Positions 6,269 through 34,891 are shown, numbered from the stretch's first letter. The stretch: DNA of 64,000 nt from Methanobacteriota archaeon (GCA_004195615.1 PSPW01000001.1:82881-146880), one strand, 5' to 3'. Translations and numbers: made by a program. Notes: a model not told the origin generated them from the sequence alone.

Positions 6269-6287
6269 TCGAGGGTTTATCTACAAA

Positions 6288-7005: not shown

Positions 7006-7057
7006 GGATCGTTACATTTCTAATGTGACCATAATAGAACTAGGGGCATTCGATTTT

Positions 7058-8350: not shown

Positions 8351-8607
8351 CGACAACCCTCTCATTAAACAAGACGAAATGCAGTATCACGCAGGAGCCA
8401 GTACAACCATTCGACTCATGCATCTCCTAAAATCCCACCGTGGCACCAATAGGTATCCATCGACCTAATTCCTACTCCTCACCATAATGCTTGCATCACC
8501 TTAGGTAGCGTGATGAATGCCTACGAAAATCTCTATTGGTTTGTTGCGCATTGATGTGAAATCGGTGCTACCAAGCCAGTAATAACTTCGTCACTTAACG
8601 GTATACC

Positions 8608-9573
8608 GTGGAGTTCTACACTGGAGCATGCATGGTTTGCATCGGCGTCTATCTTTTTTGGGAACCAAGCTATGGAAGAAAGCCTACTCCGTCATCGGAA
8701 TCGGCGACGTCTAGAGCAAAGGATTCTGGGGCACTAAGTCAGACAGTACGTCAGGTGGCACGGATGACGATTAGGCCAACCTTCCTCCCCACCAGAGGGC
8801 TTCGAATCTACAGGGCCTTCGCATTTATCGGAGCTTTTTTTGGTTTCGTGGCCTCTAAATTGGTAATTTCTAATCCTTACATTTCTAACGAAGTCTCTCC
8901 GAGTGTTATTCTGTGGATATGTGTGGCGATTGGCTCATTCCTTGGTTACATTTTACCTCGAGTTGCTGAGAACTACATAGTGGTCCTAGGTCCTCCGGTC
9001 ACAGTAGTATTGACTTACGAATATCTGTTGTACGAGAGAGGTATCGATTTGCTAGAATTAGTTGTGGAAATCCCCTTTATTCCGGAAATCTCCCATTCTC
9101 TTCTTTCCGGTTTCTTTCTGGTCTCGACAACTTTCCTCACTTTGACCTTCAGGATGTACTTGAGACAGGCCATCCCAATCCTCATGTCTGGGTTATTGTC
9201 TGGGGGGCTGATTGGTAATGGAGTCTCCATAATCCAATCTAGGTCATTTCCACTATCTTCAGCAGAAATTGAATTTCATATCTCCGCCATAGTCGCAATG
9301 TGCAGCATCACTTCCCAGATTTACGTCAGATATTATCGGAGGGAGAGGGGTATCAAGAAGCAGAAGGCGGAAGACCGAGAAAGGCGACTAGTCAAGAGGT
9401 CGGGGGACGTTGTGATATTGAGATGCCCTTCTTGCAACAAAGAGGCCCAGCACGTAGTTGTGACTAGGAAAGTGACGGAGAGGGGAGTGGAGTTGATGGT
9501 GAATTGTAGGTGGTTGAATCAATTTGACGAGGTGTGCAATTTCCACCACACGGTGATTGAATCGACTGGCTGA
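8608..9573 (+). CDS. Hypothetical polytopic membrane protein with a C-terminal C4-type zinc-ribbon
   Basis: Five to six TM segments, then a basic linker (RRERGIKKQKAEDRERR) and CPSC...(20 aa)...CRW...C..H. The table start is GTG, so the real start may be an internal ATG. Confidence 0.45.
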   Translation: MEFYTGACMVCIGVYLFWEPSYGRKPTPSSESATSRAKDSGALSQTVRQVARMTIRPTFLPTRGLRIYRAFAFIGAFFGFVASKLVISNPYISNEVSPSVILWICVAIGSFLGYILPRVAENYIVVLGPPVTVVLTYEYLLYERGIDLLELVVEIPFIPEISHSLLSGFFLVSTTFLTLTFRMYLRQAIPILMSGLLSGGLIGNGVSIIQSRSFPLSSAEIEFHISAIVAMCSITSQIYVRYYRRERGIKKQKAEDRERRLVKRSGDVVILRCPSCNKEAQHVVVTRKVTERGVELMVNCRWLNQFDEVCNFHHTVIESTG

Positions 9574-9595
9574 ATGGGCGTGGTCGCAATGCCGT

Positions 9596-10348
9596 TCAGA
9601 ATACACCGGAGTTCTGCTGCATCCTAGCGTACCATACGGACACGCCGAGGTGGCTCTCTACAATGTCGAACCCATTGAGGTCCTGCATCGAACGGAGGAT
9701 CCCAAAGTTGGCGAAATCTGCGCCGTTCGGCTCTTTGCCGCCAAAGAAGTCACCCCGTATTCCCTCGGACATGAGGTCCAGTTGGTGCTTGAGGTTCTCG
9801 CGTGGAGGGAGTTCGAACATTTTCGCTCGGCTCTTCCCCACCATGCGCATGATGAATCCTCCTAACCACTTGTTAATCAGGCGACTTCCGAACGAAAATT
9901 TGTCGACTCTGGTGACGTAGTCGAGGGCTTGGACAGAGGTCCTGTACGAGGTGTATATCACTGCTACGATTGACTTCCCTAGGACGTTGTTTGAGAAATC
10001 CATCCACTTGTCCTGCTCCAGGTCCTCTCCCATTCGCGGGAATGCCCCGGTGCCTTTCGAGTCGATGTAGTGTAGGATGTGGTTCGAGTCGTTCACCTGA
10101 GTTCCGTCGACATCGACGAACACGGGCACCTTCCCCCAATCGGACCACTTCAGTTGCGTCTTGAAGGTGGGGTCGACCTCGACCTTAGAGAACTCAATCC
10201 CCCTAGATCCCAGTAGTGCCTTAATCTTGAAGCAGAACGGGCAGGTCTCGAAGCAATACATCGTCGGGAGGCCGCCAACAACCCTCTCCGGGACCAGTTC
10301 ATCCTGCACACCCGAGGGTGTCTCCTTCGCTTCGGGGTCGCTTGTCAT
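9596..10348 (-). CDS. Glutaredoxin-2-like / GST-fold thiol transferase (N-terminal CPFC active site)
   Basis: MYCFETCPFCFKIKALL resembles the GrxB N-terminus (YIYDHCPFCVKAR). The length fits a GST fold and the start is ATG. Confidence 0.6.
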   Translation of the reverse strand: MTSDPEAKETPSGVQDELVPERVVGGLPTMYCFETCPFCFKIKALLGSRGIEFSKVEVDPTFKTQLKWSDWGKVPVFVDVDGTQVNDSNHILHYIDSKGTGAFPRMGEDLEQDKWMDFSNNVLGKSIVAVIYTSYRTSVQALDYVTRVDKFSFGSRLINKWLGGFIMRMVGKSRAKMFELPPRENLKHQLDLMSEGIRGDFFGGKEPNGADFANFGILRSMQDLNGFDIVESHLGVSVWYARMQQNSGVF

Positions 10349-18495: not shown

Positions 18496-18555
18496 CGGCC
18501 CTTGAGGTCATTTCGTCAAGGTAGGCTTTTATCCGCCTCTCTAGGGCAACGGACG

Positions 18556-21500
18556 ATGAGGCGCACAGCAGTATTACTAGTAATACTGATGCTGACAGCG
18601 ATTCCTGCTTCGATGAGTCAGGATTTCCGACTGGCCGCCATCCCATCCCAGATGAGCACTGGATCGGGGGCGAACTGCCCCAACCAGACCCATTCGGGGG
18701 ATGCCTTCTACGCAGACGGATCGACTGGAAACGACTCTTGGAATGGAACCCAGGACTGCCCGACCGCCTCCATCCAGGCCGCTGTCGACCTGGCTTCCGA
18801 GAACGGCACGGTGATCGTCAGAGAGGGTGTCTACCACGAGGTCGTCACGTTGGACCAGCAGGGAATGAGGCTGAGGGTAGCCGATGGAGAGAGAGTCATC
18901 CTAGATGGCAGCCGAAGCGTTACTGGCAATCTCGGGGGCTCATGGTCGGTCCACGACTCCTCGTCGACTGAGGGGATCGTCTGGAAGGCGGACCTCACCC
19001 AGGACGCATGGCAGCTCTTCGTGGACTACGAGGAGGAGATGCCAGCGAGGTGGCCCAATGCGAACTTCTCCGACGGGACCGCCCTGGACGACGACGAGTA
19101 CTGGGCCCACGGAAGCGTGAACGTTGATGACTACGAGACGAACGAGACCGCAGCCTGCAACGAGGGGATGTCAAAGTACCAGAGTGGCAACAAGTACTAC
19201 TGCCTCAACTACCTCAATGGCGAGCTGGAGGACGACAACTCATCCTACGCAGGGCACAACGGCCTAATCGACAGCGGCGTGAACGCTACTGACGCGATTG
19301 CCGTCCTGAACATCGGCTCCTTCAGGACGTGGAGCCGAAACGTGACTTCACACAACACCAGCAACGGCTCCTTCAACTTCGAAGAGGTACCCAGTGACGA
19401 GTGGAAGTACAAGCACCACATGTACTTCCTGACACAGAAGCTCGAGCTGCTCGACGTGCCTGGCGAGTGGTTCTTCGACCACGAGTCGTCGGCCAACACC
19501 GTCTACTACATGCCGAGGGACGGCAGCGACCCCAACGACCTAGACATCAGGATGAAGACCCAGCCGTACGCCATACTGTGCTCGGACGACGATGGGGTGG
19601 TGGTCGAGGGCTTCGACTACTTCGCCACCACCTTCAGCCTCGATGACTGCGACGGCTCGGAGATCAGGAACTCCACTCTACTCTACCCCAGCACCTCGAA
19701 GAGGTCTCTCGGCCATGCGGGCGAGGACATGGACAACCGATACGTCTCCAGATTCGATGACTGCATCAGCTGCCTGGTGGACAGCTGTGACTTCCTTTAC
19801 ACCGATGGGGCGGCCTTCGAGGCCCACGGAGGGGCGTCAAGCTCCCAGAACAACACCATCAACAACTCCTACTTCTACCACATCGACTGGTCAGGTTCCG
19901 ACCAAAAGAGCCTGATGACGACCATCATGATGGACGGCACGACCAACCGGTTCACCAACAACACGATGCACAGGACGGGGACCTCCGCGACGATCAGGAT
20001 CGGCAACGCCCCCCAAATCATGTTCAACGAGATCTACGACACCGCCCACATCCAGTCAGACGGGACGGTCGTCCAGATGATGCAGGCAGAGCAGGAGAAC
20101 GCGACAGTCGCCTACAACTGGATCCACGACGTGCCCAAGTACGGCATCAGGATGGACGGGCCGTTCGGCGGTACTAACTCAGGCAGGAACGCGAGCGTGC
20201 ACCACAACGTGCTGTGGAACGTGAACGGCGCCATTGTTGTGAAGGGCGACTACCACAACGTGAGTAACAACACGGTCCTCCTGGGATCCGAGGGCGACAG
20301 GAACCACATCATAGTCCTCTACGACTCGACCGGGGGCAACGAGAACTCGACGATCATGTCCAACGCGGCAAACTCCATCAGCGGTCATCGGACAAACTCG
20401 AACCTCACCGACCCGATTCCCGTCAACTCGACGGCCATCGGCAACAACTGGAACGGATACGACCCCCAGAACACAGGTGAGAACGTCTCCGGAATGCTGG
20501 TCTCCCCCGAGACGAGCGACTTCAGGCCCGTGTTCGGGTCGGAGATAGGCCAGATGGGAGCGGGGGCGTACTCCAGCACCCAGAACGCTACCGTCCCAGC
20601 CGACCCGTCCTCCTTCGACCCATCGACCTACTACTGGCTGCCCGGGATCAAGAGGAACGTCTCGAGTCCCTATCAGAGGACGTCCTTCGACCTACCATGC
20701 CCGTCTGGCCAATATCGATCCGCCGCAGGAGCCTCCTGCGAAGCAGCCCCTGCCGGTCAGCACGTCCCACTCTGGGGGTCAAACTCTCCGACCGAGTGCA
20801 CGACTGGGACCTGGCAGGACGAGACAGGACAGTCCAGCTGCATCGAGGCCGATGCGGGTAACTACGTCGGCACCAACGGGTCGATGATTCAGATACAGTG
20901 CTCCACAGGTTCATGGCAGGACCAGCCCGGTCAGGCGAGCTGCATGAACGCGAGCGCCGGCTACTACGTGGACACCAACGAGTCGGCTACGCAGAACCAA
21001 TGTTCTCCGGGGACATTCCAGCCCCTCGCAGGGCAGACATCCTGCATAGAAGCGGATGCTGGTCACTACGTCGCCCAAGCACCTCTTGAATTCACCTCAA
21101 TCTCTGGAAAATGGGGGCACACTTGTGGAATTATGGTGGACGGAACCCTGTATTGCTGGGGGGACGGAGATTCTGGTCAAATCGGTGACGGGGGGCTGGA
21201 TGATCGTAGTTACGCCGTGGCGGTTGACTTGCCTCCGGGACGAGCCGCGATCTCGGTTTCAGCGGGTTACGCTCACTCGTGCGCCGTATTGGACAACCTC
21301 TCCGCATACTGCTGGGGGATGGGCGGATGGGGGCAGATGGGGCATGGTTCTTGGGATTCCAATCTTGTCCCGGGCCCAGTTTCACTCCCCTCGAACAAAA
21401 CTGTTAGCTCCGTAGTTGCGGGATACGACCACTCCTGCGCATTGATGAACGACTCCTCCCTATACTGTTGGGGAAAGAACGCTGTAGGCCAACTAGGCAA

Positions 21501-24500
21501 CGGTGATGCGACAGTAACCCACTCCTTCAGCCCAATCTTGATCATTGGTAGTTCAGTTGAGTTCGTATCAGCTGGGAATCAGCAAACCTGTGCAATATTG
21601 TCCAATGGGACAGCGTACTGCTGGGGAAGGAACGACTATGGGTCATTGGGCAATATCGAGCAGGGATGGAATGACGACTCGTACGAACCCTTGCAGGTTG
21701 ATGTCCCCCCTGGCAGGGAGGTCACGGTCATTTCTGCAGGAACATCATTACACAGTTGCGCGACTCTGGACAATGGTTCCGCATATTGTTGGGGTTACGG
21801 GAACGATGGGCAACTAGGAAACGCCTCTAGTTACGATACCACCAACTGTGCCGGATACTGGTGCACGTCGGGGCCTACTCCGGTTCAAGTCCTGTTGCCC
21901 CAAGGAAGCAACGCCACCTCGATCAAAACAGGGGGCTCTCACTCTTGTGCAACGCTGTCAAATTATTCCCTTTACTGCTGGGGGCACAATTGGTATGGAG
22001 AGGTCGGTGACGGAACTCAATCATCCAGACTGGTTCCCGTGCTAGCCTCTATCGTTCCCGAAGGAGGAATCTCAGACTTCTCTGCCGGGGGTGGCTATTC
22101 TTGTGTGGTGACTCATGATGACTCTGCATTCTGCTGGGGTGATGGTTCTCTTATGGGAAATGGTAGGCTCGGGATTGGTGAAATCAACGCAACCAATCAT
22201 CTCAATCTAGATCCATTGTTGGAAGTTCGGGGTCCTTATGTTCCCTTCATTAGCCAGACAGCCTGCTCCCTTGGTTCCTACCAGTCATCCACCGGCCAAT
22301 CATCTTGTGATGAAGCAGATGCGGGCCACTTTGTGAGCACGAACGGGTCGGCCACACAGACGCCCTGCGAACTGGGCACCTGGAACAACATGACCGGTCA
22401 AGTCTCCTGCACGAACGCGAGCGTCGGGCACTACGTCGATACCAACGGGTCCGCGACCCAGACCCCCTGCGGACTGGGCACTTGGAACAACATGACCGGT
22501 CAAGTCTCCTGCACGAACGCGAGCGTCGGGCACTACGTCGATACTAACGGGTCCGCGACCCAGACCCCCTGCGGACTGGGCACTTGGAACAACATGACCG
22601 GTCAGTCCAGCTGCACGAACGCGAGTGCCGGCTACTACGTGGACACGAATGGGTCCACCATGCAGACCCCCTGTGACGCGGGGACGTACAACCCGAGTAA
22701 CGGGTCCAACTCGTCTGCAGACTGCCTGACCACTCCTGTGGGCAACTACTCCGGAGCCGGAGCGGCCTCGCCGACACAGTGCTCACCAGGTACGTGGCAG
22801 AACCAGACGGGGCAGTCGAGTTGCATGAACGCCAGTGCTGGCCACTACGTGGACACCAACGGGTCGACTACGCAGACTCCCTGTGCTCCGGGCACATGGA
22901 ACAGCATAACCGGGCAGTCCAGCTGCATCCCGGCATCCCCCGGATACTACGTGGACACCAACGGATCTACCTCCCAAACTCCCTGCGATGCAGGGACGTA
23001 CAACCCCAACTCATCCTCCAACTCCTCCACAGACTGCCTGACCACTCCCGCTGGCAACTACTCCGGAGCCGGAGCGGCCTCGCCGACACAGTGCTCACCA
23101 GGTACGTGGCAGAACCAGACAGGGCAGTCCAGCTGCATCGATGCCAATCCCGGGCACTACGCATCGGGATACGGGAATACAAATGAGACCCAATGCGGGC
23201 TGGGCACTTGGACAGACCAGACGGGACAGAGCTCCTGCGCACCGGCATCCCCCGGATACTACGTGGACTCTAACGGGTCGACGACCCAGACCCCCTGTGA
23301 GTTGGGGACGTACAACCCTAATTCGGGGTCGAGCGATCCATCTGATTGCGTCCAAGCCAGTCCCGGCTACTACGTCGACCAGGAGGGGCAATCGAGCCAG
23401 ACCCCATGTTCCGCTGGCTCGTACAACAACATCACTGGGTCCACCACGTCGTCGGACTGCATCGATGCACAACCAGGATACTACATCGCCTATCCCGGAT
23501 CAACCTCACAGAGCCCCTGCCAGTTGGGGGAGTTCCAGCCATCGCCCGGTCAATCCTCGTGCATCGATGCCGATCCGGGCAACTATGTGGATTCGCTTGC
23601 CTCCACCAGCCAGACGGCCTGCTCCCCTGGCTCGTACCAGCCCAACTACGCGCAGACAGAATGCCTATCTGCAAATGTGGGGCACTACGTCGAGACCTCT
23701 GGATCTGCCAGCGAAACCCCCTGTGATGCGGGGACGTACAACACATTCACCGGATCGGTAGTCTCATCGGACTGCCTAGAAGCGGATCCGGGTTACTTCA
23801 CGGCCTCCTCGGGCTCATCCTCGCAGGTCGCTTGCTCGCCTGGTTCGTACCAGCCCAATCCGGGAGCGACCAGTTGCATCTACGCTACGCCGGGACATTT
23901 CGTCGACCAAGCAGCGGCGACTTCGGAGCAGAGCTGCCATCTCGGAGAGTACCAGCCCAGCACCGCTAGGCAGAGCTGCATGACTGCAGACATAGGGTAC
24001 TACGTGGACTCGATCGGCTCTTCCGGCCAGACGAAGTGTCTGCCAGGCAAGTACAACCCCGACGAGGGGGCCATGACGGTCGATGCATGCATAGATGCCG
24101 CGCCCGGATTCCACGTCCCGACGACCGCAACTGGTGTGAGCAGCCAGACTCCATGCTCGGCTGGGACTTACCAAGCCGCCTATGGGATGACGGAATGCAC
24201 CGAAGCCGAGGCGGGCTACTACGTAGACACGACTGAGGCCTCCTCTCCTACTCCCTGCTCCGCCGGTTCCTATCAGCCAAGCACCGGACAAGTGAGCTGC
24301 CTTGACGCGGGTGATGGGCACTACGTTGCCGGGACGGGGCAGTCCGAACACACGCCGTGTCCGATTGGGACCTACCAGCCCGACGTGGGCAAAATAATCT
24401 GCGAGGACGCGGATCCGGGTTACTTCGTTGGTGAGGAGGGCTCCACCACGCAGACTGGTTGCCATGCTGGGACCTACCAGCCCGGCCAAGCACAGGAAAG

Positions 24501-25992
24501 CTGCATCTCTACAGAGCCGGGGTATTACGTGACTGGGACGAAGGCCACCGAGAAGACCCCCTGCTCCCCAGGGAAATGGCAGAACCAGACCGGGATGACC
24601 ACCTGCAACAGCGCAGAGCCCGGATTCCATGCACCAAACCCGGGAGCGGATGATCAGACTCCCTGTCCGAGTGGGACGTTCCAGTCAGAGTTCGATAGTA
24701 TCGAGTGCGAGAGCGCCCAACCGGGATACGTCGTCAGCCTCGATGGCATGACGGTTTCGAGCCCGTGTCCCACAGGATCCTACCAGTCAGCAGGTGGTCA
24801 GACCAGTTGCACTGAGACGTCTCCGGGGTACTACGTGGACTCCCTTGGTTCCACCGAGCAGTTGTCATGCCAACCAGGGACATGGCAAGACCTCGGGGGC
24901 AAGTCTGGATGCCAGGACGCGCAACCTGGTTACTACGTCGATACCGAGGCTTCGATTGAACAGTCTATCTGCTTAGAGGGGACATACCAGCCGGAAACCG
25001 GCCAATCGGCATGCATAGTTGCACCCACTGGATTCTTCGTGGAGTCCCCGGGCTCATCGGTGCTAACGAAATGCTCCTCGGGACAGCACCAGCCCACCGA
25101 GGGCAGCACTTCCTGCGTGGACAAGCCGGTCAACCCGGTCCTGATAGGGGGTGGAGCTGCCGCCGTTATCATACTACTATTGGCCTCAGTGGTTGGCTTC
25201 AGGGCCTACAAGAGGAAGCAAGATGCGGAATTCGAGGCAATGATGTCAGAGGACCCGGAGGGGGTCGACGCGGAAGACGAGGCTCCCGTGGTAGCGGAGG
25301 AAGCCGAGCCAGTTGACTACAACTCCATGACCGTGCCCCAGCTCAAGGAATTGCTGCAAGAGCGTGACTTGACTGTTGGCGGAGTCAAGACCGAGCTCGT
25401 TTCCAGGCTCGAGGAGGACGATGTGCAGTTGGAGAAGTTCAAGGCGAGGCTTGGGCATGTGGAAGTGGCGGCAGATGTCGTGGAGGAAGATGATGAAGAT
25501 GACCTCCTAGAGGACCTGGAACTCGATGATGACGAGGATGATGAAGATGACCTCCTAGAGGACCTGGAACTCGATGATGACGAGGAGGATATCGATCTAG
25601 ACGAGGAGGATATCGATCTAGATGTTCCTGAGACAACTGAGGAGATTGAGACCACCGAGGTGGAGGGGGAAACCACCGAGGTAAGCGAGGAGATCAGCGA
25701 TGCTGAGTTCGAGGAGTTCGAGGAAGAGGTGACCGATACCCAGGTGGTTGCAGAGGCTCCGGTGGTTGCAGAGGCTCCGGTGGTTGCAGAGGCTCCGGTG
25801 GTTGCAGAGGCTCCGGTTGAGACCAGCGAGGAGATCAGCGATGCTGAGTTCGAGGAGTTCGACGAAGAGGTGGCGGTAGCAGAGACGCCGGTCGGGGCCA
25901 GCGAGGAGATCAGCGATGACGAGTTCGAGGAGTTCGACGAAGAGATCAGTGAGGAAGAGTTCGAGGAGTTCGAGGAGTTCGACGACGAATAG
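18556..25992 (+). CDS. Giant single-pass surface glycoprotein. The order is signal peptide, NxS/T-rich (possibly beta-helix-like) region, 7 RCC1-like repeats, about 30 ephrin-receptor-like Cys repeats, a TM helix, a cytoplasmic SAP motif, and a poly-acidic repeat tail.
   Basis: One ORF spans the whole region. Signal peptide MRRTAVLLVILMLTAIPASMSQ. Dozens of N-x-S/T sequons. Seven repeats of the form YCWG.N..GQLGNG. More than 30 repeats of the form C..G.Y....G...C..C..G.YV. TM helix VLIGGGAAAVIILLLASVVGF followed by YKRK. SAP-like TVPQLKELLQERDLTVGGVKTELVSRLEE. The tail has repeats DDEDDLLEDLELDDDED x2, APVVAE x4 and SEEISDAEFEEFDEE x3. The table start (18502) is TTG; ATG 18556 begins the signal peptide. 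Confidence 0.85.
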   Translation: MRRTAVLLVILMLTAIPASMSQDFRLAAIPSQMSTGSGANCPNQTHSGDAFYADGSTGNDSWNGTQDCPTASIQAAVDLASENGTVIVREGVYHEVVTLDQQGMRLRVADGERVILDGSRSVTGNLGGSWSVHDSSSTEGIVWKADLTQDAWQLFVDYEEEMPARWPNANFSDGTALDDDEYWAHGSVNVDDYETNETAACNEGMSKYQSGNKYYCLNYLNGELEDDNSSYAGHNGLIDSGVNATDAIAVLNIGSFRTWSRNVTSHNTSNGSFNFEEVPSDEWKYKHHMYFLTQKLELLDVPGEWFFDHESSANTVYYMPRDGSDPNDLDIRMKTQPYAILCSDDDGVVVEGFDYFATTFSLDDCDGSEIRNSTLLYPSTSKRSLGHAGEDMDNRYVSRFDDCISCLVDSCDFLYTDGAAFEAHGGASSSQNNTINNSYFYHIDWSGSDQKSLMTTIMMDGTTNRFTNNTMHRTGTSATIRIGNAPQIMFNEIYDTAHIQSDGTVVQMMQAEQENATVAYNWIHDVPKYGIRMDGPFGGTNSGRNASVHHNVLWNVNGAIVVKGDYHNVSNNTVLLGSEGDRNHIIVLYDSTGGNENSTIMSNAANSISGHRTNSNLTDPIPVNSTAIGNNWNGYDPQNTGENVSGMLVSPETSDFRPVFGSEIGQMGAGAYSSTQNATVPADPSSFDPSTYYWLPGIKRNVSSPYQRTSFDLPCPSGQYRSAAGASCEAAPAGQHVPLWGSNSPTECTTGTWQDETGQSSCIEADAGNYVGTNGSMIQIQCSTGSWQDQPGQASCMNASAGYYVDTNESATQNQCSPGTFQPLAGQTSCIEADAGHYVAQAPLEFTSISGKWGHTCGIMVDGTLYCWGDGDSGQIGDGGLDDRSYAVAVDLPPGRAAISVSAGYAHSCAVLDNLSAYCWGMGGWGQMGHGSWDSNLVPGPVSLPSNKTVSSVVAGYDHSCALMNDSSLYCWGKNAVGQLGNGDATVTHSFSPILIIGSSVEFVSAGNQQTCAILSNGTAYCWGRNDYGSLGNIEQGWNDDSYEPLQVDVPPGREVTVISAGTSLHSCATLDNGSAYCWGYGNDGQLGNASSYDTTNCAGYWCTSGPTPVQVLLPQGSNATSIKTGGSHSCATLSNYSLYCWGHNWYGEVGDGTQSSRLVPVLASIVPEGGISDFSAGGGYSCVVTHDDSAFCWGDGSLMGNGRLGIGEINATNHLNLDPLLEVRGPYVPFISQTACSLGSYQSSTGQSSCDEADAGHFVSTNGSATQTPCELGTWNNMTGQVSCTNASVGHYVDTNGSATQTPCGLGTWNNMTGQVSCTNASVGHYVDTNGSATQTPCGLGTWNNMTGQSSCTNASAGYYVDTNGSTMQTPCDAGTYNPSNGSNSSADCLTTPVGNYSGAGAASPTQCSPGTWQNQTGQSSCMNASAGHYVDTNGSTTQTPCAPGTWNSITGQSSCIPASPGYYVDTNGSTSQTPCDAGTYNPNSSSNSSTDCLTTPAGNYSGAGAASPTQCSPGTWQNQTGQSSCIDANPGHYASGYGNTNETQCGLGTWTDQTGQSSCAPASPGYYVDSNGSTTQTPCELGTYNPNSGSSDPSDCVQASPGYYVDQEGQSSQTPCSAGSYNNITGSTTSSDCIDAQPGYYIAYPGSTSQSPCQLGEFQPSPGQSSCIDADPGNYVDSLASTSQTACSPGSYQPNYAQTECLSANVGHYVETSGSASETPCDAGTYNTFTGSVVSSDCLEADPGYFTASSGSSSQVACSPGSYQPNPGATSCIYATPGHFVDQAAATSEQSCHLGEYQPSTARQSCMTADIGYYVDSIGSSGQTKCLPGKYNPDEGAMTVDACIDAAPGFHVPTTATGVSSQTPCSAGTYQAAYGMTECTEAEAGYYVDTTEASSPTPCSAGSYQPSTGQVSCLDAGDGHYVAGTGQSEHTPCPIGTYQPDVGKIICEDADPGYFVGEEGSTTQTGCHAGTYQPGQAQESCISTEPGYYVTGTKATEKTPCSPGKWQNQTGMTTCNSAEPGFHAPNPGADDQTPCPSGTFQSEFDSIECESAQPGYVVSLDGMTVSSPCPTGSYQSAGGQTSCTETSPGYYVDSLGSTEQLSCQPGTWQDLGGKSGCQDAQPGYYVDTEASIEQSICLEGTYQPETGQSACIVAPTGFFVESPGSSVLTKCSSGQHQPTEGSTSCVDKPVNPVLIGGGAAAVIILLLASVVGFRAYKRKQDAEFEAMMSEDPEGVDAEDEAPVVAEEAEPVDYNSMTVPQLKELLQERDLTVGGVKTELVSRLEEDDVQLEKFKARLGHVEVAADVVEEDDEDDLLEDLELDDDEDDEDDLLEDLELDDDEEDIDLDEEDIDLDVPETTEEIETTEVEGETTEVSEEISDAEFEEFEEEVTDTQVVAEAPVVAEAPVVAEAPVVAEAPVETSEEISDAEFEEFDEEVAVAETPVGASEEISDDEFEEFDEEISEEEFEEFEEFDDE
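22381..22686 (+). repeat. Three tandem, near-identical 102-bp (34-aa) in-frame repeats inside the giant surface-protein gene. Copies 2 and 3 differ by about 1 nt.
   Basis: The unit tggaacaacatgaccggtcaagtctcctgcacgaacgcgagcgtcgggcactacgtcgataccaacgggtccgcgacccagaccccctgcggactgggcact recurs at about 22381, 22483 and 22585. A second long copy pair (ggcaactactccggagccggagcggcctcgccgacacagtgctcaccaggtacgtggcagaaccagac) lies about 312 bp apart at about 22741 and 23053. Confidence 0.85.
25480..25989 (+). repeat. In-frame low-complexity acidic repeat block (the C-terminal tail of the giant protein)
   Basis: Short tandem DNA repeats: gatgatgaagatgacctcctagaggacctggaactcgatgatgacgagga x2, gaggatatcgatctagacgag x2, gttgcagaggctccggtg x4, agcgaggagatcagcgatg.tgagttcgaggagttcga x3. 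Confidence 0.8.
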
Positions 25993-26000
25993 GGCCGTGC

Positions 26001-26660
26001 CTAGCCGACGGGTTCCCCGCCTTCGCCCATGAAAGCGAGCCTACCGAGGGATCCCTCTTCCAGCATATGGGAAACGACAGATTCGGGTACCGATTCACCC
26101 ATCACCGATCTCACGGCATCCTCATCGTAGACGGTCGACATCATGTGGGCAGTGGCCCTGACTCTCCAGCCCTCGTATGAGTCGCGATGTTCGAGTTGTT
26201 CGAGGATTACTGGCCATCCGGAGGACTCGTAGAGCTCCGCCGTGCCGATATCGGTGGTGAACAGTGACCCCGAGGCTCCGTGGTACTTCTCGGCATGGGA
26301 GACCCAGTTTGGAGGGTCTTCGATATCCGGGACCGCTACGATAGTTGCTGTGATTCCAGCCGACCCCAGCCATGTTTCGAGCATTGTGGACCTCTCTCCT
26401 GCGGACCATGGGTTCCTCATCGAAGGAGGTTGATTGGATGAGCCGATGGCGATTATGAGTTGCTTGTCGCTTGCATTTGTGGAACGCCATTCCTCAGCGG
26501 CCCGGATTATCAGAGCGTGCCCCTTGTGGACCGGTTGGAACCTACCCAAGACGACCACGCCAGATTCGGGTGGTTCTGCTGGAGGCAGGGGCTCCAGTGG
26601 TAGATCGCTCAATTTGGCGGCCTCCACGCGTCGGAGAATTTTGCTCGACCGATTCTCCAT
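26001..26660 (-). CDS. nadM: Nicotinamide-nucleotide adenylyltransferase (archaeal NadM type)
   Basis: VLGRFQPVHKGH matches the (H/T)xGH cytidylyltransferase motif in archaeal NMNAT context (GRFQPFHKGH). The ATG at 26660 gives a 34-aa N-terminal leader, so a GTG start near 26558 is possible. Confidence 0.7.
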   Translation of the reverse strand: MENRSSKILRRVEAAKLSDLPLEPLPPAEPPESGVVVLGRFQPVHKGHALIIRAAEEWRSTNASDKQLIIAIGSSNQPPSMRNPWSAGERSTMLETWLGSAGITATIVAVPDIEDPPNWVSHAEKYHGASGSLFTTDIGTAELYESSGWPVILEQLEHRDSYEGWRVRATAHMMSTVYDEDAVRSVMGESVPESVVSHMLEEGSLGRLAFMGEGGEPVG

Positions 26661-27286
26661 TCCCCTGCATCGAGGAATTCACGACCCACCATCAGCTGCA
26701 TTTTCGACTTCCTGAGAGACTCCATGACATTGAAGAGCGACTCGCTCAGGGTCCGGTGCGACTCCATGGTGGGCAGGATCATCGGATCCTCGGCCGGCTC
26801 CATCGTCTCGCCCATCTCTTCCCTCCTAGACATCCAGTCCAATACCACAGACTCGGAGTAGGATGACCTGTCCATCCTTGAAAGGGCTTCTGAGAACTGC
26901 TCCCATACCTCTGGCAGGAGGAAGTCATCGGGCCCGGTTACGGATTGGTCTAGCATCGGCTCGACGTATAGAAAAAGCCGCGCGTCCCAGCACCTCCACT
27001 GGACCGATGAGCACCACTTGGCGAGAAGGAGTCTGAGTTCAGCTGCAGCATCGGTGGGAGCCTCGTGGAGGACCATCCCACTCCCTAGCCCTGATGCCCC
27101 GTCAATGATCTCGAGGACCTCTCCCTCCAGATCCACATCGAAGTCGCGGTGAGAGTGGGGATCCGCCTCCGGCCTAGAGTCCCTGAGGGATGATTCCTCC
27201 ATCGCAGACGATATTTCGGACACGCTCATCGCCATCAACGCGTTAAGCAGACCTCGGTCGACCAGATGGAGCATCACATCGACCAT
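26609..27286 (-). CDS. Hypothetical acidic protein (225 aa)
   Basis: The ORF fills the 750-bp gap between nadM and the DRG gene and has protein-like composition. The alternative plus-strand ORF is Arg-rich junk. It overlaps the nadM ATG by 52 nt if nadM starts at 26660. Confidence 0.35.
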   Translation of the reverse strand: MVDVMLHLVDRGLLNALMAMSVSEISSAMEESSLRDSRPEADPHSHRDFDVDLEGEVLEIIDGASGLGSGMVLHEAPTDAAAELRLLLAKWCSSVQWRCWDARLFLYVEPMLDQSVTGPDDFLLPEVWEQFSEALSRMDRSSYSESVVLDWMSRREEMGETMEPAEDPMILPTMESHRTLSESLFNVMESLRKSKMQLMVGREFLDAGEWRIGRAKFSDAWRPPN

Positions 27287-29380: not shown

Positions 29381-30001
29381 TCACTCTTTGACACCAGCTT
29401 CGACCTCTGGTGCGCCCCCTTCCGAGAATTCAGAAATCGTCATCTGCGCTTCGGGAGCTAGGGATGCGGCGAGCTCGGCGCTGGTGAGCCCGAGCTTGGT
29501 GGCCTCCGACCTAAACCAAGCGCGGACCTTTCTGAACTCGACCTCTGGGCAACCAAAGTACTCGGCGAATCTCCGAGTGGTGGTGAGTCGTCGGGTGAGT
29601 CCGTCCCTCCTCCTGTCGATGAGGCCCATCGAAGCTAGATCCCGAACGTGGTCGTAGGCCTTCTGGCCGAGCATGTCCTTCAGCTGGGATTGCTGCATTG
29701 GCTGGTGGTAGGCAATCAGAGCTGCTGCTGGTAGTAGCCTTGGAGGTATGTCCGCCCTGAATGTCTCTGGGAGGAAGGAGGATAGTTCGGGCCTGACCTC
29801 GAATATCCACCTGCCTGAAACGTCCGTAAGTTGCAGGGCGCTGTCCTCTCTCTGCTCGAATCTCTTCCTCAGGTTGGATAGGCCGACGTGGATGACCCCT
29901 TTCGGTTCCCCGAGCATCTCGGAGAGCTCCTCGAGGGACATCGAGCGTCCCGCTCCGAACAGGATGGCTTCGAGTACTGTGGTCAGTGGCGGCTCAGACA
30001 T
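29381..30001 (-). CDS. scpB: Segregation and condensation protein B (ScpB)
   Basis: N-terminal LEAILFGAGRSMSLEELSEML wHTH, typical of ScpB. Located downstream of scpA and smc. Confidence 0.85.
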   Translation of the reverse strand: MSEPPLTTVLEAILFGAGRSMSLEELSEMLGEPKGVIHVGLSNLRKRFEQREDSALQLTDVSGRWIFEVRPELSSFLPETFRADIPPRLLPAAALIAYHQPMQQSQLKDMLGQKAYDHVRDLASMGLIDRRRDGLTRRLTTTRRFAEYFGCPEVEFRKVRAWFRSEATKLGLTSAELAASLAPEAQMTISEFSEGGAPEVEAGVKE

Positions 30002-30986
30002 TTGAGACCTCCAACGAATCGGACTTCGGGTGTAGCTTATGGGTCAGTTCCTCATAGTCCTCTGATCCTTCCCAGAGGTCACCGAGGACTATCCTGCCGT
30101 TGTAACCCCCCTCCTGGTCGAGTGAGATGTAGCCCCTGTTTGTTAGGAACAGGGTGGATACGAATGCGGTGACTTGCGATTCTGTCTTGGTCTCCTGATC
30201 GTCCAGTCCCGCTTGCGAGTTCCTGTTCAGTTCGTCTGCGACCTCTCCGAGTGCCACCGATTCGGATGACTGTGCCCTAGATTTCAGAGCATCCCACGTC
30301 CTCTTCAAGTCTCCTTCGAGATCCTCTACGTGGAAGCTCCCGCTGAATCGTGCCCTTGCCCTGTCGTGTGCCTCCCTCCTCTCCTTGGCTATTCTCTCCC
30401 TGGTCCTCTGCTCCTCGGCAATTCTACTCGCGTCCTTGAGGCCGAGGAGGAGCTCACCGAGGGTGACTGGCCGGCCTTCTTCCCGGTGTATGCGCCCCTC
30501 GAACATCGAAGGTAGAGTCTCGTCGGCTGCTCCGGTCATGACGCCCACTGAGAAGTTGTAGTCAGCGTCATCGAATTCGACCTCCCAGCCGTCATCGAAG
30601 TCCCAATCGACTTCCTCCTCGAAATCCATAGCCCTCTCCTGACGCTCTATCAGGGAGATCGCCTGACCGCGTAGGATGGACCACGCCATCCTGATTATGC
30701 GACCGCACGATGGGAGGTCAATGTTCTCGGCCTTCTCGATTCGCTCGTTGAACATCTCGATGAAACTGGATAGGTCGACGTCCCAGGGGTCCAAGTCGCT
30801 CGATTGGAACATCTGGAACACCAGGGCAACCGAACGGTCGAATGGGTCGATGAGGAATTGATGCTCCGCCTCGTCCAGGGTCGACAGCTCCATCAGCCTG
30901 TCCAGGAATTTACTGGCCTCTAGGTTGGGCTGGCCCTCAAGCAGACGGAGGACAACATCATCCCTCATCTGCTCTCCGAAAATCAC
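29994..30986 (-). CDS. scpA: Segregation and condensation protein A (ScpA kleisin)
   Basis: Placed between smc and scpB on the same strand. Kleisin-like length and acidic composition. GTG start overlapping the smc TAG stop by 1 nt, and an 8-nt overlap with scpB. Confidence 0.75.
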   Translation of the reverse strand: MIFGEQMRDDVVLRLLEGQPNLEASKFLDRLMELSTLDEAEHQFLIDPFDRSVALVFQMFQSSDLDPWDVDLSSFIEMFNERIEKAENIDLPSCGRIIRMAWSILRGQAISLIERQERAMDFEEEVDWDFDDGWEVEFDDADYNFSVGVMTGAADETLPSMFEGRIHREEGRPVTLGELLLGLKDASRIAEEQRTRERIAKERREAHDRARARFSGSFHVEDLEGDLKRTWDALKSRAQSSESVALGEVADELNRNSQAGLDDQETKTESQVTAFVSTLFLTNRGYISLDQEGGYNGRIVLGDLWEGSEDYEELTHKLHPKSDSLEVSNV

Positions 30987-33900
30987 TATGCATCCTCCCT
31001 GTATTCGATCTCAGGGATTGAGGGGGCTTCCTCCTGCTCCTCAGTTTGTGCTGTTTCAGACTCCTCGATGTCCTCGGTGACGTCCTCAGTGCGCCCCCTG
31101 AGGCTCTGGAGACCCTCTCCCTCTGGCTCGGGAATTCCGTCTTCGGGCACGTCGACCCCTGCCCTGTCGGCTAGCCCACCGAGGCTCGAGGGGGCTGGCA
31201 GCGGTTCTGGGGTCTTTGGCATGTCCGCAGGGGATGGTAGCTCCGGCATCGCCTCCTTCTCCGTCTCGGAGGCGATCCTCGCCTTCTCCTCGGCCTCAAT
31301 CTCCTCGCTGAGGTCCAATGCGGCAGCCCTGTCGAAGTCGGTTATCCTCTGGCTGCATCCGTTGCCTGCGTGGGTGATTCCTATGTGGTGGTCGGCCAGC
31401 GTGAGGCTGACCTTCCTCAGTGTGACCATGATGAATTGTGCCATGCCGCTCCTCATCCTGCAGAGGGCTGCGATCTTCTCGGAGTTGAATGGGTCGAGGT
31501 TCTGGTCCACCTCGTCGAAGTAGTAGAACGGGCTGGGTTCGTAGTCCTGTATCGCGAATATCAGTGCGAGCGCTGCCATCGACTTCTCGCCGCCGGATAG
31601 GGCGGCCCTCCGAGTGTTCTGGCTCTTGCCCGGTGGGACGCATGCCATCTCCAAGCCTCCGTCGAAAGGGCTGTCTATGTTCTCGAGCTTCAGTTCGCCG
31701 CTGCCTGTGGGCTGCAATATCTCGTACACCCTCCGGAAGTTGTTGTTGACGTGCTCGAAGACGTTGAGCAGCCGCGTCTTTCGCTCGTCCTCCAGTTGGT
31801 CTGCTATCGTGGAGAGCTCGTCCCTGCGCTTCCTCAGGAGATTGCCGTCTGCAATCAGGTCCGTGATGCGCGCGGCGGCGGCGTCATACTGCTCTATGGC
31901 GAGCATGTTAACGTCCCCGAGGGCGCGGAGGCGGCGCTCGAGCCCCTGCACGCTCCGCTCCGCCTCCACAACTGTTGGCAGTTGCGCGTCTTCTGGTGGG
32001 ATTGGTATGCCGGCCGCCCCTAGTTCGGCCACAATCTCGTCCAGCGCCTCGCGCCTCTGCTTGATTTGTACGCTAAGTTCCTCCAATCGCCCGGATATGC
32101 TCTGCTTCTCCTGGGAGATCCTCTCTAAGTGGGCCCTTAGGCTGGCCCTCTCCTCGATGATCTCGTCCCTCTTGTCGTTCAGGAGCTTCTGCTCCTCGTC
32201 GAACTGGGAGGCCTGCTCTCTGAGTTCGAGGAGCATCGACTCGGATTCTCCTATGCTCGACTTGAGTTCGCCGATCTCCTTCTCTGCCCTGGAGATCGAG
32301 TCGTTCTGAGACTTGACCTGTCTGTCCAGCTCTGCCACCCTGTCTATCAGAATCTTCAGCTGCTGGGTCGATGTCTCGATTGATGCCTCGGACATGACGC
32401 GAGTCCTCTCTGCCTCGGTTCTGACCCTCTCTGCCTCTCTGAGCTTGACAGACAGGTAGTCGGGAGTGTGGTTCTGGAGGTCTTCTGCGGCCTTGGACCG
32501 GGTGGCCGTCGCCTCCTCGAGGGAGACTCGGGCATTCTCGCATATCGCTGAGAGTCGGGACTTCTCGGACTCGCATTCGTCGAGCTCCTTGTTGGCTGCT
32601 TTGAGCTTGGTTCTGATCTCGCTGACCGCCTTCTCGGCCCTGCTCATGTCGGCCTTCCAATTCCTGATCCTGACCGAGTGGTCATCGTTGTCGAGACCGT
32701 GTATCCTGTCCCTGAGCTCTTGCTGGCTCCTGCGGAGCTCCCTCAGAGCGCCGTCAACAGTGAAGAATAGGAGGTCCGCCTCTTGGACGCCCATCTCCAT
32801 CCTGTCTATTCCGGAACTCCCGGCTCCCGAACCCTCGAATCTCGGGCGGCCCTTCTTCGAAGAGGAGCCGCCAGTCATGGCGCCTGAGCTCTCGATGACC
32901 GCCCCGTCGAGGGTGACCATTCGCACTCCACCCATGTTCTCCCTCGCAACGTCCATGGAGTCAACGACCAGCGTGTTCCTCCCTGCATAACGAACCGCGG
33001 TCTCGACGCTTTGGTCGAATTCTAGCAGATCGTGGACGAATCCTACCACTCCGGGGTTTCTCGCCACTAGGAGCGTCCTTCCCTGGGGACGGGAGACTGA
33101 GAGTTTGTTGAGGGGGAGGAAGGTTGCCCTGCCGCCGCCATTCTTGCGTAGCCAGGTGATGCACTTTGATGCTACGTGGTCGGAGGTCACGACGATGCTC
33201 CTGAGACCGCCTCCGAAGGCGAATGACAGTGCCTCCTCGTGAGAGGGGTCCTTCGGAGACGCCAGTTCCCCGAGGGTCCCGAGGATTCCGTGGATTTCCC
33301 CGCTCTCCCTGAGCCGGGATAGTGCTGCTAGGGTGTGTGCCGAACCCGGAGTGCTTGACCTAGCCTCCATTCTGGCCTTGGCCTTGGCGAGGCCCATCTC
33401 CGCGTTCCTGAGCTTGGACTCGGCCCTGTCCCGATCATCGACGAGGGATCTCTCCTGCTTCTGCAGGCTCATCAGCTCCTTGGCCATGGACTCTCTGTTG
33501 ATGTCGGGACTGGAGTCCTCGAGGTCCTCCCCTACGAGCGCGTGGTCGTCCCTCTCGAGCTCGGCGGTCTCGAATGCCTGCTCTATGTCGACCAGGTTCT
33601 CAGATGCTATCTGGGATCTCTGGTTCGCCCGGTCGTAATCCAGTTGGGCTTGTGAGTATGCTGTGCTGGCGGACTGCTCGTCCTCAGTGGCCTTGCCTAG
33701 AAGCCTGTTGAGGTCGCGGCCGAGCTTGTCTCCGGACTGGATGGCCTTCCTCGCCTCTTCCTCGTCCTCAGCGGCCTTCTTCAGGGCCGCCTTAGAGTCT
33801 GAGACCCTTTGGTGGAGGTCTGTGATGCTCTGCTCTGATTGTATGCGGGCTTTGTCGGCCCCTTCCCTCTCACGTATCAGAATTTCGATCTCCTCCTCCG

Positions 33901-34891
33901 AGCTCTCGATGGCCCTCTTGTGGTCGCCGATGCGGTCGGAAGCGGTCTCCAGATCGATCTCGTGTTGCCTAATTTTGTCTATGATCTCCTTTGCATCCTC
34001 GCCCATGGCCACTTCGAGATCCCTTCTAAGTTGGACAAGTTCCTTGTCGTATCCGTCCAGTCTCTGACTCGATTCCAGCATCTCCTTGGAGAGGTCTTTC
34101 TCCTTTGTGACGTAGTTGGACCTCTCCTCCGACAGTAGTGATACCTCTCCCTGTCTGTTCCTGTGTTTGGATTGCTCTAGAGTCAATCGGGCTAGGTCCG
34201 CCTCTCCCTTCAGTTCCCTGAACTTCAGAGCCTGCTCTCGTTCCTTCTCGAGCTCCGTGAGTCGTCCCTTCTGGTCGGCCTCGAAGATGTCGATCGTCTC
34301 TATGCTGTTCTCGACGTGCTTGCGCTGCGTGTTCGCCTTTCGTATCTCGTCGTCGTAGGCAGTCACCCCGGCGACCTGCTCCAGTACCCCCCTCCTCTTG
34401 TGGGGAGTCATGGTGGCTAGGTTAGTGACGTCGCCCTGCAGCACTATGTTGTAGCCGTCCCCTCTCAGTCCGGCCTCCGAGAGAATCCTTCTCATCTCGG
34501 TGGCCGAGGATGGATTGTCGTTGATCCTGAACGAGGAGACTGGGTTCCCCTTCCTGTTGAGTTTGACCGACCTCGTGAAGGAGACCTCGTCCGAGTCGGA
34601 GCGGAGCCTCCTCTTGCCCCCGACCTCCGGGGTGTTGCTGAATACCAGGGTCGCCGACATGTGTTTTGCCGGGCTACCGGACTTTCCTCCGTTGAAGATG
34701 AGCTCAGAGACATTGGAGGCCCGGAGCGATCGTGTAGACTTGGGTCCGAGGACGAATCCAATGGCATCTCCGCAGTTTGATTTACCGCTGCCGTTGGGGC
34801 CGGTGATCGCTGTGAAGCCCTCCTCGAACGGAATGATCGACTCGCCGCCGAACGACTTGAAATTCTCAACCTCAATCCTGACTAGATGCAT
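30986..34891 (-). CDS. smc: Chromosome segregation ATPase SMC, with an acidic/Pro-rich C-terminal extension of about 120 aa
   Basis: Walker A FTAITGPNGSGKSNCGDAIGFVLG, a long coiled-coil, a hinge, ABC signature LSGGEKSMAALALIFA and Walker B YYFDEVDQNLD. 1301 aa. Confidence 0.95.
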   Translation of the reverse strand: MHLVRIEVENFKSFGGESIIPFEEGFTAITGPNGSGKSNCGDAIGFVLGPKSTRSLRASNVSELIFNGGKSGSPAKHMSATLVFSNTPEVGGKRRLRSDSDEVSFTRSVKLNRKGNPVSSFRINDNPSSATEMRRILSEAGLRGDGYNIVLQGDVTNLATMTPHKRRGVLEQVAGVTAYDDEIRKANTQRKHVENSIETIDIFEADQKGRLTELEKEREQALKFRELKGEADLARLTLEQSKHRNRQGEVSLLSEERSNYVTKEKDLSKEMLESSQRLDGYDKELVQLRRDLEVAMGEDAKEIIDKIRQHEIDLETASDRIGDHKRAIESSEEEIEILIREREGADKARIQSEQSITDLHQRVSDSKAALKKAAEDEEEARKAIQSGDKLGRDLNRLLGKATEDEQSASTAYSQAQLDYDRANQRSQIASENLVDIEQAFETAELERDDHALVGEDLEDSSPDINRESMAKELMSLQKQERSLVDDRDRAESKLRNAEMGLAKAKARMEARSSTPGSAHTLAALSRLRESGEIHGILGTLGELASPKDPSHEEALSFAFGGGLRSIVVTSDHVASKCITWLRKNGGGRATFLPLNKLSVSRPQGRTLLVARNPGVVGFVHDLLEFDQSVETAVRYAGRNTLVVDSMDVARENMGGVRMVTLDGAVIESSGAMTGGSSSKKGRPRFEGSGAGSSGIDRMEMGVQEADLLFFTVDGALRELRRSQQELRDRIHGLDNDDHSVRIRNWKADMSRAEKAVSEIRTKLKAANKELDECESEKSRLSAICENARVSLEEATATRSKAAEDLQNHTPDYLSVKLREAERVRTEAERTRVMSEASIETSTQQLKILIDRVAELDRQVKSQNDSISRAEKEIGELKSSIGESESMLLELREQASQFDEEQKLLNDKRDEIIEERASLRAHLERISQEKQSISGRLEELSVQIKQRREALDEIVAELGAAGIPIPPEDAQLPTVVEAERSVQGLERRLRALGDVNMLAIEQYDAAAARITDLIADGNLLRKRRDELSTIADQLEDERKTRLLNVFEHVNNNFRRVYEILQPTGSGELKLENIDSPFDGGLEMACVPPGKSQNTRRAALSGGEKSMAALALIFAIQDYEPSPFYYFDEVDQNLDPFNSEKIAALCRMRSGMAQFIMVTLRKVSLTLADHHIGITHAGNGCSQRITDFDRAAALDLSEEIEAEEKARIASETEKEAMPELPSPADMPKTPEPLPAPSSLGGLADRAGVDVPEDGIPEPEGEGLQSLRGRTEDVTEDIEESETAQTEEQEEAPSIPEIEYREDA

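Follow-up and report, generated by a model that had tools for sequence, protein, structure and literature searches.

A SAP domain and a polyacidic tail at the predicted cytoplasmic end of a giant surface protein of Marine Group II archaea

We analyzed a 64,000-nucleotide stretch of a Methanobacteriota genome (GCA_004195615.1 PSPW01000001.1:82881-146880; hereafter the window, with positions counted from its first nucleotide), which encodes a giant predicted surface protein with a SAP domain and a polyacidic tail behind its single transmembrane (TM) helix. The gene is complete and lies on the plus strand at 18502..25992, where an intact open reading frame (ORF) of 2,496 amino acids (aa) ends in a TAG stop codon (25990-25992); the assignment is supported by the ORF list, Pfam, orthologues and conserved synteny. 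The true start is probably the ATG at 18556 (MRRTAVLL...), which would give a classical signal peptide, MRRTAVLLVILMLTAIPASMSQ (18556..18621, plus strand, as are all parts of the gene). A hydrophobic window spans aa 22-40 with RR just before it, and the homologue P0163 begins MKRIAVLLVILMVSAVPASI. From the N- to the C-terminus, the product consists of the signal peptide, a beta-helix, an RCC1 propeller, 22 Ephrin_rec_like repeats, the TM helix, the sequence RAYKRK and a 263-aa tail that contains the SAP domain. Pfam matches on the protein comprise RCC1/WD40_RLD (aa ~861-1111), the 22 Ephrin_rec_like repeats and SAP, together with a weak GH141/beta-helix signal near the N-terminus. Based on these matches and on composition, the ectodomain (18622..25137) is divided into a beta-helix-like N-terminal part, an RCC1-like propeller and the Cys-rich repeats; its homologues carry DUF1565 (PF07602) and Ephrin_rec_like domains. 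When the full protein was looked up by exact sequence, once with each candidate start, a collection of 15 billion proteins gave no match, and the nearest named relative is a "hypothetical protein" at NCBI (MBJ29257.1).

The ectodomain is followed by the TM helix, VLIGGGAAAVIILLLASVVGF (aa 2213-2233; 25138..25200), which has a Kyte-Doolittle value of 2.67 over 19 aa, is modelled by AlphaFold2 (AF2) as part of a helix at residues 5-42 of alignment A1, and is kept in all orthologues. Directly after it come RAYKRK and a conserved helix (together RAYKRKQDAEFEAMM; 25201..25245), a juxtamembrane segment that is near-invariant in 15 orthologues and agrees with the TM helix and YKRK stop-transfer described in an earlier, sequence-only reading of the window (the first-pass annotation). 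A flexible acidic linker of 23 aa (25246..25314) then leads from the membrane to the SAP domain; it is variable in sequence, similar in length and consistently acidic, and its predicted local distance difference test (pLDDT) values in AF2 are below 50. The protein is predicted to be a type I, single-pass envelope glycoprotein with its C-terminal tail in the cytoplasm, because it has only two hydrophobic segments (the signal peptide at aa 22-40 and the TM helix), its charge follows the positive-inside rule (one K or R in the 15 residues before the TM helix vs. four in the 15 after), and Cys residues and glycosylation sequons are confined to the ectodomain (89 Cys and 62 N-x-S/T sequons, with none of either in the 263-aa tail). 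Thus, by sequence rules (charge, Cys, sequons and TM count), the protein has a signal peptide, one TM helix and extracellular marks in its N-terminal part only, and the tail is predicted to lie in the cytoplasm, as the first-pass annotation assumed. An archaeosortase sorting signal (PGF-CTERM and similar) was rejected, given that 263 residues extend beyond the TM helix and no PGF-like motif lies ahead of it.

The SAP domain (DYNSMTVPQLKELLQERDLTVGGVKTELVSRLEED, aa 2272-2306) occupies 25315..25419 and was assigned from PF02037, Tho1 similarity, AF2, Foldseek and substitution rates; the previously proposed start, 25318, is its second codon. The consensus match on which that proposal was based is substantiated by the Pfam SAP profile (PF02037), which scores 46.1 bits on the tail alone (E = 3.3e-12) and 42.5 bits on the full protein (E = 4.7e-11) against a curated cut-off of 23.9. 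When all PDB sequences were searched with phmmer, yeast Tho1 came first: its SAP domain (1H1J, 4UZW, 2WQG) matches with E ~1e-9 and is 59% identical over 39 aa. The domain positions V8, L11, L15, G24, K26, L29, R32 and L33 are invariant in nine SAPs including Tho1. Among orthologues, K2282, R2288, K2296, R2302 and the loop Gly are invariant; K2296 and R2302 are also invariant in all compared SAPs, and K2282 and R2288 are retained in most. The second helix of the domain continues into a basic, conserved C-terminal extension, DVQLEKFKARLGHVE (25420..25464), in which K105, A108, R109 and L110 are invariant in alignment A1 and which is modelled as one continuous helix with it.

The predicted structure is consistent with the profile match. 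In the AF2 model of the SAP domain alone, DSSP assigns helices at residues 11-20 and 28-53 with a 7-residue loop (pLDDT ~80-85, mean 80). A larger model, from the TM helix to the acidic region, contains a long TM/juxtamembrane helix, a disordered linker, a 10-aa helix, a 7-aa loop and a long helix, followed by an acidic part with pLDDT <50. A Foldseek search of the PDB with the SAP-only model ranks Tho1 (1H1J) first with probability 0.93, followed by the SAPs of HNRNPUL1, 3'hExo, SARNP, Ku70 and SF3B2. These SAP matches (1H1J, 2WQG, 1ZRJ, 2DO1 and Ku70) are weak (E = 0.04-3, root-mean-square deviation 8-10 A), because the domain is small (~50 residues) and helix 2 carries a long extension; the larger TM, linker and SAP model gave no meaningful Foldseek match to the PDB. 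Compared with 13 orthologues, the ratio of nonsynonymous to synonymous substitution rates (dN/dS) of the SAP and its extension is 0.045-0.117 at dS 0.7-2.1. Judged from these coding sequences, the region is under strong purifying selection and is not chance low complexity.

The relationship of this domain to eukaryotic proteins was also evaluated. A profile search of 1.84 billion representative sequences returned 2,868 matches at E <= 1e-3, and the nine at E <= 1e-30 are all orthologues. The next-best matches are multi-SAP proteins, the named ones being from one oomycete and one diatom (both stramenopile). Among the best 150 matches, almost none apart from the orthologues has a TM helix ahead of the SAP, and the membrane-SAP families presented below came instead from genome and metagenome scans. 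No second SAP beyond the target genes was found in the window or in 195 kb of loci L001-L023 (~150 kb of it Poseidoniales). With Tho1 as the nearest solved structure and multi-SAP proteins as the nearest sequences outside the orthologues, the likeness to eukaryotic SAP, as far as sequence comparison goes, is homology and not convergent low complexity. Membership in the HeH/LEM family was rejected, as its profile (PF12949) scores 14.2 bits, below the cut-off of 28.9, and covers only 16 residues. Thus, of the similarity to "eukaryotic nuclear-envelope logic" raised in the first-pass annotation, the SAP homology stands, with Tho1 nearest, whereas the HeH/LEM component falls below threshold, and the idea as a whole was too narrow.

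The remainder of the tail is extremely acidic. The 263 residues contain 43% D+E and 4% K+R, for a net charge of -102; across 43 other ORFs of the window, D+E amounts to 13.8%. The 175 aa beyond the SAP extension (25465..25989) are ~51% D+E with no K, R or H and form a polyanionic, presumably disordered region (low pLDDT) with four EFEEF motifs and the C-terminus EEFEEFEEFDDE, the terminal peptide of the tail being …LSEDEFDEFDDF. The region was delimited from Tandem Repeats Finder (TRF) output, motif positions and comparison of 11 complete tails. A 48-bp tandem repeat (2.1 copies; 25489..25590; TRF match 98%, score 197) encodes DDEDDLLEDLELDDDE twice, and a 21-bp unit encodes the two copies of EEDIDLD. 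An 18-bp repeat (4.2 copies; 25743..25817; TRF match 100%) encodes (APVVAE)n, whose copy number in orthologues ranges from 0 to 7. By TRF and motif positions, 75-bp and 36-bp units (25800..25973) encode three copies of the acidic-phenylalanine (Phe) motif SEEISD[AD]EFEEF[DE]EE and a fourth, degenerate one. All repeats listed in the earlier annotation were therefore recovered, both as protein repeats and as tandem repeats in the DNA.

Complete tails share a common plan: TM helix, RAYKRKQEAEFEAMM, acidic linker, SAP, EEDD.QL.KFKARLGH, (DDDILGDLELEDDD)n, (APVVAE)n, (ISDDEFEEFDEE)n and an ...EEFDEFDDF end. In the 11 complete tails, the post-SAP region measures 74-224 aa and contains 49-61% D+E, 0-1 basic residues and 2-6 [DE]F[DE][DE]F motifs. 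Two orthologues (L004:3-3047, aa 941-960; L008:3-3221, aa 999-1018) have a second, truncated SAP fragment, EAQLKEMLQGRDLTSGGDK, within the acidic tail, which by its sequence is evidence that tail DNA was recently duplicated internally. Scanned against Pfam at E <= 1, the 264-aa tail gave SAP and the sub-threshold HeH only, and no histone-chaperone core (NAP, nucleoplasmin or ANP32), so homology to histone chaperones was rejected. Poseidoniales are reported to encode one histone-like gene, an acidic four-fold fusion (median isoelectric point (pI) 5.2) that may not bind DNA (PMC13260811, a 2026 survey). Because this sole reported histone-like protein is acidic, a classical basic histone is an unlikely partner for the tail, as judged from the survey of the order. 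The former description of the tail as "histone-chaperone-like" thus finds no homology support in the Pfam scan and is weakened by the published acidity of the Poseidoniales histone (PMC13260811).

The source of the window is an MGII (Marine Group II) archaeon of the order Poseidoniales, probably of the family Thalassarchaeaceae. The neighboring genes are archaeal and include a cytidylyltransferase-like NMNAT candidate, a DRG-type GTPase, TatC, ScpB, ScpA and SMC. A word-indexed protein search with the TM-SAP segment recovered ten C-terminal fragments with 58-85% identity, one of them on a 29-kb Tara Oceans contig whose downstream genes match the window. A scan of one genome per GTDB species gave 22 relatives, 16 of which represent the orthologue in Poseidoniales metagenome-assembled genomes (MAGs) or single-cell genomes, one labelled Thalassarchaeaceae; a further Poseidoniales locus among the 22 (L017) encodes a different protein, an S8 peptidase. 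The genes that follow the SAP-tail gene remain syntenic in 10 loci, and eukaryotic contamination was rejected in view of this conserved archaeal synteny. Most orthologue contigs (L002-L016) stop in the Ephrin_rec_like array and reach no further than ~2-3 kb upstream from the TM helix, and public copies are mostly truncated, with gene callers beginning at an internal Met (e.g., "MDEPINP..."). Since nearly all orthologue contigs break in the repetitive ectodomain, the window holds a rare complete copy. Related MGII proteins (P0166 and P0168-P0180) share the DUF1565 beta-helix, Ephrin_rec_like and calcium-binding-type repeats and end in a 23-aa tail, RRRSSDSELESPGIEYESEWDDK, without SAP. Because proteins with a like ectodomain have this short SAP-less tail, the SAP tail is an add-on of one subfamily.

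The S8 peptidase provides the second example of a membrane protein with this module. At L017:434-2731, in a Poseidoniales MAG, a Peptidase_S8 ectodomain is followed by a TM helix and by a SAP at the extreme C-terminus; the protein has conserved metagenome fragments of its own and a further copy at L024:2-1423. A metagenome scan seeded with the tail of this protein yielded 80 loci, which were classified. In about 50 of them (L061:3998-4651, L025:3911-4675, L064, L081 and ~45 more in L024-L103), an acidic linker rich in aromatic residues (e.g., EDEFESDDFFEDEWDDF) connects an N-terminal SAP to eL32; the SAP has Pfam scores of 54-62 bits in the two copies scanned. About 14 others encode eS1 (S3Ae) joined to a C-terminal SAP by an acidic linker rich in A, V, P and E (L030:3062-4126, L102:3086-4102, L048:2756-4108 and ~11 more). 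Two proteins of ~980 aa combine thrombospondin type 3 (TSP_3, here TSP3) repeats, a TM helix and a C-terminal SAP (L041:1151-4102 and L058:1109-4102), and one type II M28 peptidase carries an N-terminal SAP ahead of its signal-anchor (L071:696-2438), an arrangement that further supports the topology deduced for the giant protein. The set also contains copies of the giant protein (L028 and L046) and the S8 copy in L024, and the remaining loci include a SAP-C5-methylase and small phage-like proteins. An exact-sequence look-up places the ribosomal fusions in clusters of 627, 252 and 409 members, in which NCBI names include [quoted passage not shown], "Marine Group II euryarchaeote MED-G37" and, for an eS1 member, [quoted passage not shown]. 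In subtype, the TSP3 and M28 SAPs agree with the eS1 SAP of MGII, and their loci lie on marine contigs of putative Poseidoniales origin.

A common SAP subtype, DY.SMTV.[EQ]LK[DE]LL...G.K..L..RL, is present in the giant protein and in the eL32, eS1, S8, TSP3 and M28 proteins. The giant protein shares with the other fusions an acidic flexible linker and a SAP on the cytoplasmic side, which in the membrane proteins is the predicted cytoplasmic end: type I S8 (L017/L024), type I TSP3 (L041/L058) and type II M28 (L071). The KFKARLGH extension and the long acidic-Phe tail behind the SAP are confined to the giant-protein family; conversely, the SAPs of the ribosomal proteins and TSP3 proteins retain the canonical SGKK loop, unlike the giant-protein family. 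SAP is a portable cytoplasmic module in Poseidoniales. Because it recurs on ribosomal proteins and ecto-enzymes while the acidic tail is confined to the giant-protein family, the logic is that of a lineage-wide SAP tag and not of a dedicated nuclear-envelope-like device. In the literature library that we searched, no paper joins "SAP domain" with a Marine Group II name, with L32e or with S3Ae, and broader queries yielded nothing relevant either. SAP itself is a known domain; we found no earlier description of it on the tail of an archaeal surface protein or on eL32 or eS1.

The function that we favor for the tail, to which we assign somewhat less than an even chance, is that the SAP domain would tether the envelope protein to nucleoid DNA, and that the acidic Phe-rich tail would modulate this binding or recruit partners. 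The SAP of Tho1 binds double-stranded DNA (dsDNA) and not double-stranded RNA (dsRNA) (PMC4909252). Nucleoid hitching is the most economical reading because dsDNA binding is the sole activity established for this closest relative. Like the Tho1 SAP, the archaeal domain would have a weak affinity for dsDNA and no strong sequence preference. Envelope protein, ribosomes and other ecto-enzymes would thereby be hitched in parallel to the nucleoid, which fills these very small cells. The polyacidic Phe tail may imitate DNA within the molecule and so adjust or restrain the binding of SAP to DNA, in the manner of the HMGB1 acidic tail; alternatively, it may provide a multivalent platform on which a basic partner docks. 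Tethering to DNA is supported by the SAP identity, the invariant basic positions, the purifying selection, the predicted cytoplasmic placement, the conservation of the whole tail plan in at least 16 Poseidoniales species and in metagenome fragments, and the reuse of the domain on eL32 and eS1; an acidic, aromatic-rich stretch also lies beside the SAP in the eL32 fusions (EDEFESDDFFEDEWDDF). A broader proposal is that in Poseidoniales, which lack conventional basic histones, SAP serves as a general nucleoid-hitching tag that links both ribosomal subunits (eL32 and eS1) and envelope ecto-enzymes or adhesins to the chromosome via flexible acidic tethers. The resulting membrane-nucleoid-ribosome network, specific to the lineage, would be a prokaryotic counterpart of envelope-chromatin tethering, with a SAP of the Tho1/SARNP type that may have been exchanged with marine protists. 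We regard this extension as possible, if doubtful.

Several observations weigh against tethering to the nucleoid. The SAP and its extension carry a net charge of -4, the loop contains one Lys in place of the GKK found in most SAPs, and the charge of -102 on the tail should repel DNA. The SAP is not needed for basic anchoring, as the SAP-less paralogues manage with a 23-aa tail. The organism is uncultured, and membership of the TSP3 and M28 loci in Poseidoniales is putative only. Some SAPs contact RNA (3'hExo) or protein (SLX4-MUS81; PMC13171448), and an RNA or ribosome ligand would account just as well for the fusions to ribosomal proteins.

The latter point leads to an alternative in which SAP binds rRNA or mRNA and not DNA: eL32 and eS1 would gain an additional RNA-binding arm, the tails of the membrane proteins would hold ribosomes or transcripts at the membrane, and the polyacid would attract basic ribosomal proteins. 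Most marine SAP loci are indeed ribosomal fusions (~50 SAP-eL32 and ~14 eS1-SAP of the 80), the SAP of the TSP3 membrane family is near-identical in type to that of eS1, and a SAP-containing 3'hExo-RNA complex is among the fold matches. Conversely, the closest characterized SAP, that of Tho1, lacks dsRNA binding. We know of no SAP that acts as a ribosome receptor, and known ribosome-binding membrane tails are basic, not acidic. On balance, we consider an RNA or ribosome ligand unlikely. A protein-protein adaptor, in which SAP and the acidic-Phe motifs would dock one common cytoplasmic protein (cytoskeletal, quality-control or sorting) without any nucleic acid, is in our estimate quite unlikely. 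For this role speak the 2-6 [DE]F[DE][DE]F motifs and the C-terminal EEFDEFDDF, which are kept despite a three-fold range of tail length and are typical of multivalent linear motifs, as well as the similar acidic-aromatic stretch beside the SAP of the eL32 fusions. In addition, the SLX4 SAP is reported to switch from DNA to MUS81 binding (PMC13171448). The S8, TSP3 and M28 families, however, have SAP without an acidic-Phe tail, and the neighboring genes are housekeeping genes among which no dedicated co-conserved partner was seen.

Transmembrane signaling would make the outer part a sensor or ecto-enzyme, and the tail either a membrane-bound regulator of the ToxR/CadC type or a fragment freed by proteolysis, with the acidic-hydrophobic repeats resembling an activation region. 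The outer parts are substrate-facing hydrolases or adhesins (S8, M28, beta-helix/RCC1), and DDILGDLDLEDDD-type repeats are both acidic and hydrophobic, as this would predict. SAP domains are to our knowledge not sequence-specific regulators, however, and SAP on ribosomal proteins is unfit for such a role; with no cleavage site or partner protease evident, signaling seems improbable. The last alternative denies any specific function: SAP would be a relic in decay or a piece of eukaryotic sequence brought in by contamination or chimerism, and the repeats would be neutral products of replication slippage. The perfect or near-perfect DNA tandem repeats do reflect recent slippage, their copy numbers differ by species, and the closest non-orthologous SAPs include stramenopile proteins. 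Nevertheless, dN/dS is 0.05-0.12 with dS near-saturated, and motif content and the C-terminal motif are kept through changes in length. Moreover, the gene sits in matching synteny at 10 loci, the matching genomes include single-cell assemblies, and the ORF is continuous with an archaeal ectodomain and flanked by archaeal neighbors (DRG, TatC and ScpAB-SMC). Absence of function is thus largely refuted, and we consider it very improbable.

Among characterized systems, the SAPs of Tho1 and human SARNP share with the giant protein the lead-in DYSS(L/M)TV..LK.LL, the sequence VGG.K.ELV.RL..DD and a predicted helix-extended-loop-helix. Tho1 is a soluble nuclear messenger ribonucleoprotein protein, whereas here the SAP lies 38 residues from an archaeal plasma-membrane helix; relative to Tho1, the archaeal SAP is also less basic (net -4 with its extension) and is followed by a 175-aa polyanion. 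The HeH/LEM proteins (Heh1/Src1, Heh2, MAN1, LEM2 and emerin) are likewise integral membrane proteins that present a small helix-extension-helix module, which binds nucleic acid or chromatin, to the DNA compartment. They are eukaryotic proteins of the nuclear envelope with two TM helices and often act through BAF, whereas the archaeal protein spans the membrane once, carries a huge extracellular domain and belongs to a cell without a nucleus. In bacteria, Noc and ToxR/CadC, like the archaeal protein, place a DNA-binding domain at the inner face of a prokaryotic membrane, although these have ParB-like or winged-helix folds and experimentally defined functions, and lack SAP and a polyacidic tail. 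The acidic tail of HMGB1 folds back and damps DNA binding, and the acidic regions of nucleoplasmin, NAP1 and ANP32 bind basic histones. A long D/E tract is shared with these proteins (in HMGB1 beside a small DNA-binding domain), although sequence and domain homology to them is absent and the archaeal tail has ordered repeat modules and Phe motifs.

MGII are among the most abundant archaea of the surface ocean and are uncultured. The presence of a well-conserved, eukaryote-type SAP on the predicted cytoplasmic ends of envelope proteins and on two ribosomal proteins provides a concrete hypothesis for how nucleoid, ribosomes and envelope are organized in this group. From the shared module we suspect a link, so far undescribed, through which envelope and ribosomes would be attached to one and the same partner, most probably the chromosome. 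The giant protein is also a clear prokaryotic case of a membrane-anchored helix-extension-helix module, which bears on possible prokaryotic antecedents of the SAP/HeH/LEM tethers of the nuclear envelope. The SAP-ribosomal-protein fusions are an unreported peculiarity of the ribosome that we flag here.

Further observations concern the neighborhood of the gene. ScpB, ScpA and SMC are encoded at 29381-34891 on the minus strand, 3.4 kb downstream of the SAP-tail gene, and this arrangement is kept in all eight syntenic loci that reach that far (of 10 syntenic loci in total). A functional link to ScpB-ScpA-SMC was rejected, since the entire neighborhood is equally conserved, four unrelated genes lie between and the strand is opposite. 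At 26609-27286 (minus strand), a 225-aa acidic protein (pI 4.5) without Pfam match is encoded by a gene that shares 52 bp with the NMNAT-like gene, at the 5' end of the latter; the protein occurs in 10/10 syntenic loci with 54-79% identity. The G+C content of the window is 43-47% at 6-10 kb (within 4001-10000, including a DEAD-box helicase of pI 10.2) vs. 58-63% at 14-26 kb. Several public protein fragments (P0001, P0004, P0006, P0007 and P0008) carry AVSYTHLTLPT or LIHI at their ends or start with MCIRDR, and these odd ends are taken to be translated sequencing adapter from untrimmed reads, going by their sequence.

SAP was also seen in other contexts among the loci collected. In MAGs of Thermoleophilaceae (Actinomycetota), a putative uL22, recognized by eye in the translation, has an N-terminal SAP and an acidic or A/E/P-rich linker (L018:9503-10654, L019, L020:2473-3378 and L022:3425-4345). 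Bacteria would then have a counterpart of the archaeal ribosomal SAP fusions. A protein of ~200 aa has an N-terminal SAP followed by 4-6 hydrophobic helices (L040:2923-3528 and L095:1126-1767), and in L040 it adjoins a GmrSD_N/Schlafen-AlbA_2 protein, a defense-like context. Additional SAPs lie on a C5 cytosine DNA methylase (L050:1335-3209), inside a 1,794-aa ORF of a Microtetraspora MAG (L021:817-6198) and, in gut and viral metagenomes, at the C-terminal end of small proteins of 95-99 aa (L043:3866-4150 and L083).

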